The notes below the pieces were generated by a model. That model saw only the letters and a list, made by a program, of their open reading frames with translations, was not told the origin of the DNA and ran no database searches. Shown here piece by piece: positions 24,955 through 44,299 of a stretch of 50,454 nucleotides of DNA. Positions within the stretch are counted from its first letter, which is position 1; each line of letters begins with the position of its first letter. The position numbers were made by a program, and so were the translations under genes. The DNA lies in assembly GCA_011390265.1 (NCBI GenBank), contig JAABSU010000001.1:1-50454 (forward strand). Direction: 5' to 3'. This DNA comes from Spirulina sp. (GTDB lineage: Bacteria > Cyanobacteriota > Cyanobacteriia > Cyanobacteriales > Spirulinaceae).

Positions 24955-26265
24955 TTAGGTGATTTCGTCGGCGCTTACCCATTCATCATCGGAACTGCCA
25001 TAACCGATGTAATGGACAAAATATTCATCCTCTTTGGCCTTGCGGATCACGGCGGAACACCATTCCTCCTCATCCTCATCCCAAACCTTCACCGTTTGCC
25101 CCACGGCATAGCCATTATCATCGGGGTCGCCGAAGTCGCGCGATCGCACATCCGAGGGATCAACCCAATCATCATCGTCGCTGTCATAGCCCTCATAGTG
25201 AACCTTATATTCCAGCAGGTTCTTTTTCTCCCGCACTTTGAGGATTGTCGCCTCATACCAATCCTCATCATCCTCATCCCACACATCCACCCGTTGCCCC
25301 ACCGCGTAATCGGAGGAAGGCGTAGTTCCAGGGGTTGCCGTGGGTTGGGCGGCACTGGCGACGGGTTCCGGTTCCGCTTGCACTTGGGCATGGGCGGCTA
25401 AGATCACCGCCCGGGCGACGGTTTGAATCCCGGTATGTTCGTAGTAGTTGGTCATTTGATCCAACAGGGCGGCGATCACATCCAGTTTGCCACCAGCTCC
25501 CTGAATGAAATTGCCTAAACTATTGGCAATGGTTTCGGGGGTAATCCCGGTTTTACTCACAAACCCGCTCATCCACCCCTCAACAGCGGTAAAACTTTGG
25601 TTGACAAAGCCCGCCTTATCCTGGGGACTGTTGCCCGGTAGATATTGATTAACGGCTAAAAAGAGGGGATTTTGGGTGATGATGCTCGTGTCTGCGGCTT
25701 GGGTCAGTTCATGGATTTTGAGCAAAAAGTCTGTGCCCAAGGGTAGGAGCGCATCAATACAAACCAAGCTGGCCATGCGGATCAGGGCCGCATCTTGGTA
25801 GTTGTTACTCAGGGCTTGGACAAAGAGGGCGGGATTCGGTTCGAGTCGATTGAGGCGACAAAAAGCCAGTAACTCCACCGCCACCTTGAGCACCAGATCG
25901 ATACTTTGTAATGTATCGGGCTTGGGGGTGATGTTGTTCAAAAAGCCGAGAAAGCTAATTTTTTCCCCCACCTTATTGGCAAGGGCAGCGGTTGCCATGC
26001 CAAAATCCGCTTTATCGATGGTTTGGTAGAGGCGGACTGTGCCTTGGTAGGGCTGTTGATTGTCGAGGTAGAGGGCCTGGGCGCGATCGCGAATCCGGGC
26101 AATGCGGCTGGGGTTGGTTTCCCCCGTCACCGTTTTGATCATCTCGTCAAAATCAACGGTATTCTCCCACTGGCCGGGAGCAATCAAATCAATGGCCTTC
26201 AAAACCTTAACGGTAATATTGTCGGCGGGTAGGGCATCAACAAGCTGAACAATCGTATCTGCCAT
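24955..26265 (-). CDS. Conserved cyanobacterial hypothetical domain fused to two C-terminal Tudor-knot/chromo-barrel-like repeats
   Basis: Two repeats of YAVGQxVxVWDED.E.W..A.I.K....Y.VHY.GY....D.WV after a Pro/Thr linker. Confidence 0.8.
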   Translation of the reverse strand: MADTIVQLVDALPADNITVKVLKAIDLIAPGQWENTVDFDEMIKTVTGETNPSRIARIRDRAQALYLDNQQPYQGTVRLYQTIDKADFGMATAALANKVGEKISFLGFLNNITPKPDTLQSIDLVLKVAVELLAFCRLNRLEPNPALFVQALSNNYQDAALIRMASLVCIDALLPLGTDFLLKIHELTQAADTSIITQNPLFLAVNQYLPGNSPQDKAGFVNQSFTAVEGWMSGFVSKTGITPETIANSLGNFIQGAGGKLDVIAALLDQMTNYYEHTGIQTVARAVILAAHAQVQAEPEPVASAAQPTATPGTTPSSDYAVGQRVDVWDEDDEDWYEATILKVREKKNLLEYKVHYEGYDSDDDDWVDPSDVRSRDFGDPDDNGYAVGQTVKVWDEDEEEWCSAVIRKAKEDEYFVHYIGYGSSDDEWVSADEIT

Positions 26266-29884: not shown

Positions 29885-30095
29885 AGATTTTCCCCAGCAT
29901 TGATTCTTGAATCCTATCGGGGTTCATCCTCAGGCATCCCAACCGCAAGGAAGATTTTAGAGTTGTGGCGGTTCGGTTGCCGCGCAATTCCCCGCCATGG
30001 CCAACCCCCTTAAATACGTTAAAATGCCTAAACAGTCCTTAACAAAGACCCTTTGGACTGTGGCGATCGCCTTCAACGAGATCATTATTGATGAT

Positions 30096-30782
30096 ATGAA
30101 CTTACCCATTCAGGCCGTCCAAGCCCCCTACCGAGGCGGCGGTTCCTACCGCACTCCCCCCCCAGACCTACCCTCGCTGCTCCTCAAGGAGCGGATTATT
30201 TATCTGGGTTTGCCCCTCGTCTCCTCCGACGAATACAAAAACCAGATCGGCCTTGATGTTACGGAATTAATCATCGCCCAACTGCTTTATCTTCAGTTCG
30301 ATGATCCCGAAAAACCAATCTTCATGTACATCAACTCGACGGGAACCTCTTGGTATGGTGGCGATGCGATCGGCTTTGAAACCGAAGCCTTTGCGATCTG
30401 CGACACGATGAACTACATCAAGCCCCCGATCCATACGATTTGCATCGGCCAAGCCATGGGCACTGCCGCGATGATCCTCTCCTCTGGAACCAAGGGCCAT
30501 CGCACCAGCCTCGCCCACTCGACGATCATCATGCACCAACCCCGCCAAGGTGCTCAGGGGCAAGCCTCCGATATTCAAATCCGTGCCAAAGAGGTGCTGA
30601 ACAATAAACGGGCGCTGCTGGAAATTTTTGCGAAAAACACAGGGCAACCCATCGAACGGCTCGAAAAAGATACCGACCGGATGCTCTACATGACCCCACC
30701 CCAGGCCCGAGACTACGGCATTATCGATAAAGTCTTAGAAAGCTCCAAAGACTTGCCCAAGGCGATTCCCGCTGTTCTCTAG
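30096..30782 (+). CDS. clpR: Clp protease non-catalytic subunit ClpR
   Basis: TPPPDLPSLLLKERIIYLG and the YINSTGTSW insertion. QAMG replaces the catalytic Ser motif. Confidence 0.92.
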   Translation: MNLPIQAVQAPYRGGGSYRTPPPDLPSLLLKERIIYLGLPLVSSDEYKNQIGLDVTELIIAQLLYLQFDDPEKPIFMYINSTGTSWYGGDAIGFETEAFAICDTMNYIKPPIHTICIGQAMGTAAMILSSGTKGHRTSLAHSTIIMHQPRQGAQGQASDIQIRAKEVLNNKRALLEIFAKNTGQPIERLEKDTDRMLYMTPPQARDYGIIDKVLESSKDLPKAIPAVL

Positions 30783-30815
30783 ACTCTCCCATCCACCCCT
30801 ACCCCTTCAGTTACC

Positions 30816-31415
30816 ATGCCTATCGGTGTTCCCAAGGTTCCCTATCAAATGCCCGGCCAGCCCTATTCGGACTGGATTAATATCTACGATCGCCTCTACC
30901 GGGAGCGGATTATTTTTTTAGGCCGTGAGGTTAATGATAGTCTGGCTAATCAAATCATTGCGATCATGCTGTATCTGGATTCGGAAGATTCCGGCAAGCC
31001 GATCTATCTCTATATCAACTCCCCTGGCGGCTCTGTCACGGCGGGCTTGGCCATCTTTGACACGATGCAACACATCAAGTCGGAGGTGGTGACGATCTGT
31101 GTGGGTCTGGCGGCTTCGATGGGGGCGTTCCTGTTGACGGCGGGCAGTAAGGGCAAACGCCTGGCTCTGCCCCATGCACGGATCATGATTCACCAACCCT
31201 TAGGGGGAACTCAGGGCCGCCGTCAAGCCACGGATATTGAGATCGAAGCGCGGGAGATTCTGAGGATTAAGCGCCAACTCAATGGCATCATGGCGGAAAA
31301 AACCGGCCAGTCTCTGGAAAAAATCGAAAAAGACACCGATCGCGACTATTTCATGTCTCCCCATGAGGCTTTGGCCTATGGGTTGATCGATAAGGTGATC
31401 GAAGAAACCCCCTAG
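30816..31415 (+). CDS. clpP: ATP-dependent Clp protease proteolytic subunit (ClpP3-type)
   Basis: [23 protein letters not shown] and IHQP. Paired with clpR. Confidence 0.97.
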
Positions 31416-37990: not shown

Positions 37991-39034
37991 GTGGGATTAT
38001 TTAGTCGTTTTACATTGTCTCGGGACATGGGTATCGACTTGGGAACAGCCAACACCCTCGTCTATGTCTCCGGAAAAGGAATTGTGTTGCAAGAACCTTC
38101 CGTTGTTGCAATTGACCAAGACTTAAAAGTCCCCCTTGCGGTCGGGGAAGATGCCAAGAAAATGCTTGGCCGTACCCCTGGTAACGTTGTGGCGCTACGG
38201 CCCCTCCGGGATGGTGTGATTGCTGACTTCGATACCGCCGAACTGATGCTGAAGCACTTCATTCGGCAGGTGCATGAGGGCCGTGCCTTGGTCTCGCCCC
38301 GTATTGTGATCGGGATTCCCAGTGGTGTTACTGGGGTTGAGCGCCGTGCAGTCATGGAAGCCGCGTCCCAGGCCGGAGCACGGGATGTTTACCTAATTGA
38401 TGAGCCGGTAGCCGCAGCCATTGGCGCGGGCTTACCCGTTGCTGAACCCACCGGCAACATGATTATTGACATCGGCGGGGGAACCACCGAAGTTGCCGTC
38501 TTGAGTTTGCAAGGTACAGTTCTCAGTGAATCCGTTCGGGTTGCTGGGGATGAACTGAGTGAATCCATCACCCAATACATGAAAAAAGTCCATAACCTCG
38601 TGGTTGGGGAACGGACAGCAGAAGAAATTAAAATCCAAATCGGCTCAGCTTATCCTCTCCAAGGTGATGATGAACTGACAATGGAGGTACGAGGCTTGCA
38701 CCTCCTATCGGGTTTACCCCGCACCGTCACGATCAAATCTTCAGAAGTTCGTGAAAGTATGTCCGAACCCTTGGCGGTGATTGTCGATGCGGTCAAGCGA
38801 ACCCTTGAGCGCACACCCCCAGAACTGGCTGCGGATATCATTGATCGTGGGATTATGCTCGCCGGTGGCGGTGCATTGCTCAAAGGCATTGATACGCTGA
38901 TCAGCCATGAAACCGGGATTGTCACTCACATTGCTGCTGATCCCCTCAGTTGTGTTGTTTTAGGAACCGGGCGTGTGCTGGAGAACTTTAAACAACTGGA
39001 GCGGGTCTTTAGTAGTCGTTCACGAATCATGTAA
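37991..39034 (+). CDS. mreB: Rod shape-determining protein MreB
   Basis: GIDLGTANT, EPSVVA, DIGGGTTEVA and LAGGGALL. GTG start taken at 37991. Confidence 0.99.
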   Translation: MGLFSRFTLSRDMGIDLGTANTLVYVSGKGIVLQEPSVVAIDQDLKVPLAVGEDAKKMLGRTPGNVVALRPLRDGVIADFDTAELMLKHFIRQVHEGRALVSPRIVIGIPSGVTGVERRAVMEAASQAGARDVYLIDEPVAAAIGAGLPVAEPTGNMIIDIGGGTTEVAVLSLQGTVLSESVRVAGDELSESITQYMKKVHNLVVGERTAEEIKIQIGSAYPLQGDDELTMEVRGLHLLSGLPRTVTIKSSEVRESMSEPLAVIVDAVKRTLERTPPELAADIIDRGIMLAGGGALLKGIDTLISHETGIVTHIAADPLSCVVLGTGRVLENFKQLERVFSSRSRIM

Positions 39035-39039
39035 GCTCA

Positions 39040-39192
39040 ATCTTGTTGTTACAATGATTTGAGATCTAGCTGCTGCTAAAGCACAAACGACTTGCAGCCG
39101 TAGGGCATACGGTGAAGAAGCTCAAGGAGGGTAAGGTCAATGGACTCCCGACGAACTGAGAATCCCCGCCCTTTTGGGACGGGGAGTGTCAA
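39040..39192 (+). mobile_element. IS200/IS605-family relic: decayed tnpB 3' end plus right end/omegaRNA-like scaffold
   Basis: Frameshifted residues DLAAAK / LAAVGHTVKKLKEGKVNGLPTN*ESP resemble cyanobacterial TnpB C-termini. Subterminal hairpin TCCCCG-CCCTTTTGGGA-CGGGGA is followed by GTGTCAA, a typical right end. Confidence 0.78.
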
Positions 39193-39215
39193 CGCAGACT
39201 GTTGAGGCAGAGTTG

Positions 39216-39962
39216 ATGTTTACAGTGCGCCGCTGGTGGGATCGCTACGGGCCGAAGTTTTTCGTCACGGGTTTGGTGTTGGCTGTTGCCCTGTTCCTGC
39301 GCCAAACCCAGGGGGCGTTCGTTTCCGAACTTTATTATCAAGTGGTTCAGTCTTTCCAGCCTGGCCCAACGCCTCAAGAGCGTTGGGCTGATGCGCGGGT
39401 GTCTGAGCTTGAGACGAAGTTGGTTAATCTGGAACAACAGAATCAAAAATTACAAGAACTGTTGGACTATACCGAAACCTACCAGGGGGAGTTAATTGCT
39501 GCGCCGGTGATTGGCCGTAGTGTTGACCATTGGTGGAAACAGGTGACTTTGGGCCGAGGCTCCACCAGCGGGATTAAGACGGGCTACGTGGTCAGTAGTC
39601 CGGGTGGTTTAGTCGGTCGGGTGATTAAGGTGACACCGAACACGAGCCGTGTGCTCCTTGCCAGTGATCCCACGAGTAAAGTGGGGGGGAAGATTGCCCG
39701 GAATAACTTTATGGGCTATATCCGGGGTGAAGGCTCAGACATGGCGGTGATGGAATTTTTTGATAAGGTTCCGGATGTGAAGCCGGGGGATAAGATTGTT
39801 ACCTCTCCGGTCAGTTATTTGTTTCCCGCCGGCATTCCGATTGGGACGGTGGAAACGGTGGATTTGGAAAAAAGCCCTGCTCCTGAGGTGGTGGTGAAGT
39901 TTACGGCTCCGTTTGATTATTTAGAGTGGGTTGTGGTTCATCCCTTTGAAAGTCGTCTTTAA
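39216..39962 (+). CDS. mreC: Rod shape-determining protein MreC
   Basis: MFTVRRWW, coiled coil, VIGRS..WW, GLVGRV and FPAGIPIG. Synteny with mreB and mreD. Confidence 0.96.
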   Translation: MFTVRRWWDRYGPKFFVTGLVLAVALFLRQTQGAFVSELYYQVVQSFQPGPTPQERWADARVSELETKLVNLEQQNQKLQELLDYTETYQGELIAAPVIGRSVDHWWKQVTLGRGSTSGIKTGYVVSSPGGLVGRVIKVTPNTSRVLLASDPTSKVGGKIARNNFMGYIRGEGSDMAVMEFFDKVPDVKPGDKIVTSPVSYLFPAGIPIGTVETVDLEKSPAPEVVVKFTAPFDYLEWVVVHPFESRL

Positions 39963-39992: not shown

Positions 39993-40622
39993 GTGCTGAG
40001 ATTTCTTGATTTTTCGCCACGGTCTCGCAGTTTTTTCAATTGGCTGATTGTGGTTGGCTCGATTTTGCTGTGTTTGATGATTTTGCCCACCCGTTTGCCG
40101 GGGACAGAGTTGTTGGGGATTCGCCCCAATTGGTTATTGATCTGGGTGGTGGTGTGGAGTGTGAAGCGCAATGCCTATCAGGGGGCGATCGCCGGCATTG
40201 CCCTGGGGTTAATCCAAGATGGTCTAACGGCCTTTGATGGCGTGCCGATGGTGGATGGGATCATGCCGCCGAATTTTGAGGGCAGTGAGGGGAGCGCAGC
40301 GGATTTGTTATTGTCCTATCCGTCCCACGTGATTAGTCTGATGCTGGTGGGGATTTTGACGGCCAAAATTCAGAAACAACGGTATATCCAAGAAGATTTT
40401 ATTTCCATTGCCTTAATTGTCTTTGGCATGGCGGTGGTAGCTGAAACGATCACGGCGATCCAATATAGTATCCAAGGGCTGCGCAATATCACGTTAGTCT
40501 GGACGGAGCATCAACGCATTGCCTTATCTTCGGCAATTCTCAGTAGTCTTTGGGCTCCCGTGTTGTACTATCCCCTCAATCGTTGGTGGGAATACATGAG
40601 CGATCGCGACCAATCCCTTTAA
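39993..40622 (+). CDS. mreD: Rod shape-determining protein MreD
   Basis: [18 protein letters not shown] and [11 protein letters not shown]. Synteny with mreBC. Confidence 0.93.
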
Positions 40623-43939: not shown

Positions 43940-44299
43940 ATGAAATTTGAAGACATTCACACTTTTTTCAACAACCCGCCCCCCCATTACCTGAATCGGC
44001 AATTGGCGGTCTGCTACGTGCTTTCGGTGCTTCTCCACCGTGAGTCCTACGGCACGGAGTTGATTGAACAACTAGAACAAGATTACCCCTGTTATCGGCT
44101 TTCTGACACAGTGCTCTACGGAGCGCTGAAGTTTTTAGAGCAGGAAAAAACAGTCGTGGGCTATTGGAAGAAGGTTGAAGGCCGGGGCCGTCCTCGCCGG
44201 ATGTATCAGTTAAACGAGGCTGCCCAGCCTCAAGCGGAGGAACTGGCCTGGTATTGGCAACGCTATGTCCGCCAAGACCCCCAGGGTTTGGCGATGTAA
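43940..44299 (+). CDS. pex: PadR-family regulator Pex (circadian period extender); alternative GTG start at 43868
   Basis: FFNNPPPHYL, AVCYVL, ESYGTELI, RLSDTVLY.ALKFL and YWKKVEGRGRPRRMY. Confidence 0.85.
   Translation: MKFEDIHTFFNNPPPHYLNRQLAVCYVLSVLLHRESYGTELIEQLEQDYPCYRLSDTVLYGALKFLEQEKTVVGYWKKVEGRGRPRRMYQLNEAAQPQAEELAWYWQRYVRQDPQGLAM

Follow-up and report, generated by a model that had tools for sequence, protein, structure and literature searches.

We found an orphan omegaRNA scaffold, the RNA half of a TnpB system, between the cell-shape genes mreB and mreC of a Spirulina genome. The window, the whole stretch of 50,454 nucleotides that was analysed, belongs to a draft assembly of 3.57 Mb in 343 contigs that is 83% complete (G000). 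The insert is a true omegaRNA scaffold with neither left end nor protein, and it has probably been selected at this core cell-shape operon within a small clade. Our best explanation, which we hold with moderate confidence, is that the host would have selected the orphan scaffold as a cis-acting structured leader or stabiliser, a role for which TnpB is not needed.

The scaffold lies in sense orientation with mreBCD. mreB (37991..39034, plus strand, stop at 39032-39034) scores above the cut-off of NF010539/TIGR00904; its longest open reading frame opens at TTG 37973, and the in-frame GTG at 37991 is the likely start. mreC (39216..39962, plus strand, ATG at 39216) and mreD (39993..40622, plus strand) also exceed their cut-offs (NF010527/TIGR00219 and TIGR03426). 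Elsewhere in the window, two tandem ORFs at 29997-31415, presumably ClpP/ClpR-like from their translation, lie upstream of glycosyltransferase-like and methyltransferase-like genes.

Behind mreB, frame 39037 translates to KRLAAVGHTVKKLKEGKVNGLPTN*, a near-match to the C-terminus RGLAAVGHTVKKLKEGKVNGLPTN of an intact 395-aa TnpB encoded on contig C299 of the same genome. The remnant agrees with the 3' end of the C299 element at 83% over 151 nt, a similarity far above chance (E 2e-39). An 8-nt deletion has shifted the upstream D-L-A-A-A codons into a different frame, which confirms the frameshift that the first-pass annotation had read in the 5' part of the tnpB residues. The C299 element measures 1,328 nt, with its left end after TTGAC, and we take it to be of the IS1341 type (the tnpB-only IS605 group) because it has tnpB and no tnpA. 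Its ORF belongs to NF040570 guided_TnpB (273 bits), and the translation contains D, E and D residues and CPQC/CPEC, which we take to be the RuvC acidic residues and the zinc finger. An intact relative, for which the annotation had proposed to search this genome, is thus present as a cognate TnpB with all three acidic residues and the zinc finger, and the omegaRNA core of its own element is identical to the orphan at 93 of 103 positions. No TnpA was found in G000 (at 83% completeness) and one in the congener G005. On the window's contig, C1, no match to the left end of the element was found and the host flank runs straight into tnpB codons; an Rfam search at E up to 5 gave no match to the scaffold. 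In G005, whose assembly is 99% complete, the cognate tnpB is reduced to a truncated fragment (92%) and a piece of 28 residues beside another IS end (C41:86-499 and C1:44710-44793, adjoining ends of another IS605-group element). One of these pieces is identical over 71 nt to the G000 copy, which suggests a recent exchange between the two species.

The boundaries of the insert follow from the empty site. The mreB-mreC spacer measures 181 nt in the window and 47 nt in the empty-site congener G002, and the insert therefore comprises 134 nt at 39059..39192 (plus strand), an IS1341-type element remnant made of the tnpB 3' end and the right end, without the left end. The annotation was right in placing a remnant between mreB and mreC, but its start is 39059 and not 39040. 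Among five congeners, G005 carries the insert, and G001, G002, G003 and G004 are empty, with spacers of 71-72 nt in G001, G003 and G004. The insert is dispensable, since these four congeners lack it and no stable fold was found in the G002 spacer. The empty site reads AATGAC in G001, G003 and G004 and ATAAC in G002, and the carriers have TGAT. TGAC stands directly before the left ends of the closest full elements, so that the intact copies do yield the target motif of the family, as the annotation had expected; the insert lies directly 3' of this motif, with flank in the guide position.

The left junction ACAATGAT (39051..39058, plus strand) is host flank in which the target motif survives as a relic, with TGAT in place of TGAC. 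A metagenome locus, L037, retains the junction ACAATGAT-TCGAGA, colinear with tnpB codons ACAACGAA-TCGAGA, and at the left junction the flank ACAATGA and the tnpB codons ACAACGA are alike in 6 of 7 positions. We infer that the common ancestor of G000, G005 and L037 received a full element at TGAC, 3 nt downstream of an internal -10 box, and that a microhomology deletion between flank ACAATGA and tnpB ACAACGA likely removed the left end and the tnpB body. Such a deletion would have returned mreC to within 160 nt of the -10 box. As microhomology explains the 5' boundary, the omegaRNA-like size of the remnant need not reflect selection. Further carriers appear among run contigs, namely X7 record 20, X8 record 26 and, over the whole stretch, X5 record 9; none of them entered the substitution counts. 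X1 may be the source sample and does not count as independent.

The remnant consists of decayed tnpB codons (R-D-V-A-A-A region, 39059..39089, plus strand), which lie outside the RNA core and hold the 8-nt deletion, and of the 103-nt omegaRNA core itself (39090..39192, plus strand). In a model built on 14 tnpB-linked right ends, no orphan among them, the core scores 110.4 bits, compared with 116.2 for an intact training copy, 99 for the G005 and L037 orphans and 14-25 for five other scars in G000, which are shorter or decayed. Both sides change in 14 of the 28 consensus pairs of these right ends. With the pseudoknot included, 16 distinct sequences have 92.9% of their cells paired, versus 84.5% in shuffled and 32-48% in slid controls, where the shuffle test is inflated by kinship among the sequences. 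The orphan forms 33 of 35 tested pairs, a count that includes three inner hairpin pairs derived from the orphan's own sequence. All parts lie on the plus strand: the 5' hairpin at 39097..39113 (CCGTAGGGCATACGG at 39098-39112), central nested stems at 39121..39160, the right-end subterminal hairpin at 39163..39185 and the right-end terminal TCAA at 39189..39192. A predicted pseudoknot joins the hairpin loop GGCA (39104-39107) to TGTC (39187-39190), paired in 98% of family cells. The central stems described by the first-pass annotation are present, but its GGAG/CTCC pairing gives way to a covarying inner stem of GGG/CCC (39129-31 with 39147-49) and GGTC/GACT (39135-38 with 39143-46). Its main claim, an orphan TnpB omegaRNA scaffold with the guide position over the mreC ribosome-binding site, is upheld by the match to C299 and by the fold, and every string that it quoted lies where it had been placed.

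The guide-position string CGCAGACTGTTGAGGCAGAG (39193-39212) contains GAGG at 39204-39207, 8 nt 5' of the mreC ATG, and falls within the ancestral mreC leader (39193..39215, plus strand), which is present in the empty-site genomes G001-G004. The guide covers the mreC ribosome site because of where the element landed. This bears on the suggestion that the guide is aimed at a second locus or at phage, which we consider extremely unlikely: the guide is the mreC leader and older than the insertion, and only an ancestral empty allele would fit as a matching target. G000, at 83% completeness, has 0 TGAC or TGAT sites with up to 2 mismatches in the 12-nt seed, and four viral 16-mer matches reach just 13-14 of 20 nt.

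Both natural variants of the orphan depart from the family. In the loop of the right-end hairpin they have G, compared with A in 14 of 14 other copies, and the stem is lengthened; of 401 genomes, 2 have this hairpin variant, each in a single copy at the mreB-mreC site. In the G005/L037 variant, another A, shared by 14 of 14 other copies, is substituted and one base is added, and both changes create new pairs, by which the central stems are lengthened. Its predicted folding energy is -41.9 kcal/mol versus -38.9 in G000, a value that 3.75% of random change sets equal. The right-end hairpin was rejected as a terminator, with no plus-strand call there and no U-tract. On the minus strand, the right-end TGTCAA (39187-39192) reads TTGACA, a perfect -35 facing mreB, with no -10 at 17 nt. 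Two further places in the window, 43956-44060 and 25087-25107 (both minus strand), match the first hairpin of the scaffold weakly (16 bits, E 0.09; BLAST E 0.66-2.3), probably by chance.

An element absent from the earlier account lies directly upstream of the insertion. This TG-n-TACAAT extended -10-like box (39047..39055, plus strand), whose last base is overlapped by the target motif, may be an internal mreCD promoter that predates the insertion. Each of the 7 congener loci has TACAAT or TAAAAT (5 of 6 matches to TATAAT), and the distance from this hexamer to the mreC ATG is 32-33 nt in the four empty alleles and 166-167 nt in carriers; in the empty alleles, a start 6-7 nt past the hexamer would coincide with the first base of the conserved leader. 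A promoter scan found no -35 element for the box, and outside the genus a -10-like hexamer occurs in 4 of 20 spacers. In Anabaena, the available text of PMC7593598 places a putative start point 37 nt upstream of mreC and describes separate transcripts of about 1.3 kb for mreB and about 1.7 kb for mreCD. Since the insertion sits just behind the conserved -10 box, the scaffold probably serves both as 5' leader of an mreCD transcript and as an intercistronic structure.

A transcript initiated at the internal box would have its 5' end near 39062 and carry the scaffold as mreCD 5' leader; in read-through RNA, the scaffold would stand as a barrier to nucleases 55 nt downstream of the mreB stop. Compact 5' and intercistronic RNA structures protect mRNA from nucleases, as intercistronic REP hairpins do, and we infer that the folded leader would protect both the mreB and the mreCD messages from decay. 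Folding predictions also suggest that the leader would hamper opening of the mreC ribosome site: in transcripts started at the internal box, the mreC start has a predicted opening energy of 14.0, 11.4 and 9.2 kcal/mol in the carriers versus 7.8-8.4 in empty alleles, and for read-through RNA the ranges overlap (9.1-11.6 versus 8.7-17.0). The idea that the fold is kept only to spare the ribosome-binding site was dismissed, because simulated random mutants opened as easily or more easily. A general need for a hairpin in the mreB-mreC spacer was likewise rejected, with strong folds in only some relatives. In L013 and L014 this spacer is filled by a long stable hairpin (z -6.6 and -4.5) of unrelated sequence. 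A metatranscriptome contig (X7 record 20, 38967-39344, 378 nt, depth 4.7) crosses the insert; it comes from one library with possible DNA carry-over, gives neither ends nor strand and was not counted as RNA evidence.

The conservation of the insert makes selection on its fold quite likely. The comparison of G000 and G005 covers 253 kb aligned out of 364 kb of G005, in which 31.0% of 30,941 four-fold sites differ (mreB 0.309, mreC 0.315) and intergenic divergence is 16% in 45 alignable regions. The whole insert differs at 12 of 135 positions, which places it in the lowest fifth of these 45 regions; the mreB promoter spacer, at 10.5%, is close to this value. Between the core sequences of the two genomes there are 7 substitutions and 1 insertion in 103 nt. 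For the three-carrier, identical-run and coding-window comparisons, G005 was represented by L040, whose spacer is letter-identical. Four-fold divergence in mreB and mreC amounts to 100, 111 and 74 of 320 sites in the three carrier pairs (23-35%), and the pair of G005-type and L037, with 74 of 320, shows 0 differences in 104 core positions. The same variant is thus identical between two lineages that are 23% apart. The dead codons serve as an internal control: across the three carriers they changed at 7 of 31 positions, compared with 7 of 103 in the core, about three times faster (Fisher P 0.019). None of the 7 core substitutions breaks a pair (P about 0.02 by simulation), so that the expectation of relatives that keep the scaffold with pair-preserving changes holds for G005 and L037. 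These conservation tests are not independent and cover three lineages only.

Divergence along these genomes is patchy, and the binomial P values therefore overstate the case. Of 1,230 coding windows of 135 nt, 4.5-5.7% are equally low in four-fold divergence, and stretches of 191 and 134 nt outside the insert are also identical in G005-type and L037. Together with the four congeners that lack the insert and with the 24 right-end matches in G000, several of them scars without a left end, this patchiness agrees with a near-neutral scar, tolerated and hard to delete between the -10 box and the ribosome site, that owes its conservation to chance and patchy recombination. We regard this as somewhat unlikely. 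A recent recombination patch would not leave 5 differences in the 21 nt of dead codons between G005-type and L037 beside none in the core, nor does such a scar account for the lack of broken pairs. The 40 codons on either side of the insert differ at 6 of 21 and 4 of 22 four-fold sites, and no long recent transfer tract between G000 and G005 was seen around it. Gene conversion from other copies is an unlikely source of the conservation, because the hairpin variant is private to the mreB-mreC site; among 150 scored candidates in G005, the next-best match reaches 62.5 bits, and no second copy of the scaffold RNA family exceeds 63 bits.

Persistence also sets the insert apart from the other scars, which score only 14-25 bits, being shorter or decayed, and are unshared. 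Five scars of G000, picked by eye from the 24 right-end matches, one of them with a single flank matched, gave 0 of 5 in G005. Conversely, 54 pattern matches to right ends in G005 led to 32 taken, 27 mapped and 17 near a junction, and of these 17 only the mreB-mreC one is common to G000. No shared neutral IS scar usable as a clock was found among the five G000 scars and the 17 G005 junctions. The five scars (C129:549-606, C314:13637-13688, C13:18233-18283, C139:2103-2137 and C3:4922-4950) have no left-end match and are in several cases decayed; all are missing from the same sites in G005, and in G002 the site that corresponds to C129 is empty and follows TGAC. In G000, these elements seem to lose their left end repeatedly.

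Selection on the fold could act through the RNA itself or through a protein that binds it. TnpB supplied in trans might bind the scaffold on the mRNA, cut on its 5' side and lower MreC; it would cover the first 12-16 guide bases, GAGG included. The intact C299 TnpB, with its closely related core, and the retained loops and pseudoknot agree with such a regulator, and the conserved loops, linker and pseudoknot appear to fit protein binding at least as well as a structural role. In the accessible part of PMC10278001, apo TnpB processes the 5' side of RNA supplied to it and leaves the 3' side unprocessed, and action in trans is described for standalone omegaRNAs (PMC10691335, in part) and likewise for PATEs (10.1101/2023.03.14.532601, in part). 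The regulator nevertheless seems unlikely to us. The cognate tnpB is fragmentary in G005, though draft assemblies lose IS copies, and none of 10 G005 loci compared has a TnpB at a shared orthologous site. The G005/L037 variant scores only 99 bits and lacks an invariant A, although it does not differ between the two lineages. A stronger form of this reading, in which the guide RNA and not the protein was domesticated, is equally doubtful: an orphan omegaRNA expressed from mreC's own promoter would be a TnpB-responsive leader, on which an incoming TnpB would dock and cover the mreC ribosome site. We prefer an action in cis, because the cognate tnpB of G005 is broken and its variant departs from the family invariants. 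The drift of the orphan variants towards a tighter fold and away from these invariants appears easier to reconcile with a structural role in the host than with continued binding of a protein.

The conserved core beside free-running dead codons would also fit a selfish homing relic, in which the scaffold and a passing TnpB cut arriving empty alleles (TGAC followed by CGCAGACTG) and convert them, so that only working scaffolds spread. TnpB-driven retention is established as such (10.1101/2023.03.14.532601, as far as its available text goes), and 4 of 4 empty alleles would resist cutting (G002 with TAAC, the other three with another seed). No cuttable allele is among those seen, however, the element has no left end and hence no excision that would regenerate cuttable empty alleles, and G000 and G005 show no low-divergence tract of co-conversion. 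We judge this relic very unlikely.

Among known systems, the orphan is most similar to the IS200/IS605 TnpB omegaRNA (reRNA) of the IS1341 type, with which it shares the overlap with the tnpB 3' end, the right-end hairpin and TCAA, and a flank at the guide position, as described in the available parts of PMC10278001 and PMC8612924. The processed scaffold of AmaTnpB has 106 nt (PMC10278001, same part), the orphan core 103. Unlike these omegaRNAs, the orphan has no tnpB or left end in cis, occupies one host site in three lineages and has a host ribosome site, with no target, in its guide position. PATEs and standalone omegaRNAs are protein-free IS605 derivatives that keep the omegaRNA, as the orphan does (10.1101/2023.03.14.532601, PMC10691335 and PMC3119063, each in part). 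PATEs, however, have both ends and are mobile, and the orphan is single-copy, with no left end and an altered right-end loop. If the regulatory reading is right, TldR and other domesticated TnpBs would share with it the theme that a host has put a TnpB system to use (PMC10705468, PMC10691335, in part); TldR keeps a nuclease-dead protein with its guide, whereas the orphan keeps the RNA alone, and its cognate TnpB is catalytically intact by its residues and not co-inherited. By membership tests, the mreB-mreC orphan is neither a PATE, as it does not have both ends and does not occur at several sites, nor a TldR system. Structured RNAs derived from IS200/IS605 also act on host genes as Salmonella IS200 5'-UTR regulatory RNAs (available text of PMC5435999 and PMC12594629); these come from the left end or the tnpA 5' UTR, whereas the orphan comprises the whole right-end omegaRNA fold, with a predicted effect. 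REP hairpins (PMC3733652) are short multicopy repeats, compared with the single site of the orphan.

True PATEs of the scaffold family occur in G000, G240 and G008. The one in G000 (C299:33266-33618; L106/L180) has its left end after CTGAC, measures about 350 nt, contains an omegaRNA of 105.8 bits and lies 5 kb from the intact tnpB element. Those at L221 and L232 (G008) and at L099 and L107 (G240) are multicopy protein-free elements of about 230-280 nt, with a left end after TGAC, a common middle segment and an omegaRNA core, and represent cyanobacterial PATE families. Two more full omegaRNA cores, L104:1499-1601 (G240) and L096:1495-1598 (G016), score 109.5 and 86.9 bits; a left end was seen upstream of neither, and the L104 core starts a few bases past TTGAC; they are possible further orphans of the same kind.

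Standalone omegaRNAs are known, and the available text of PMC10691335 calls their role unknown. Searches of open-access literature listings brought up no earlier account of the mreB-mreC orphan, nor of any omegaRNA that a host retains as an mRNA leader. In the accessible parts of the cited work, exaptation concerns the TnpB protein; here, the RNA half is kept, in a core cell-shape operon. An empty-site sister, dead codons as an internal control and two natural variants make it a testable question whether, and for what purpose, a host can keep the RNA half of an OMEGA system. A TnpB-responsive leader, if true, would couple transposon activity to cell-wall elongation. If the scaffold acts as a cis leader only, it would be a small case of regulatory exaptation in a few Spirulina-type lineages.
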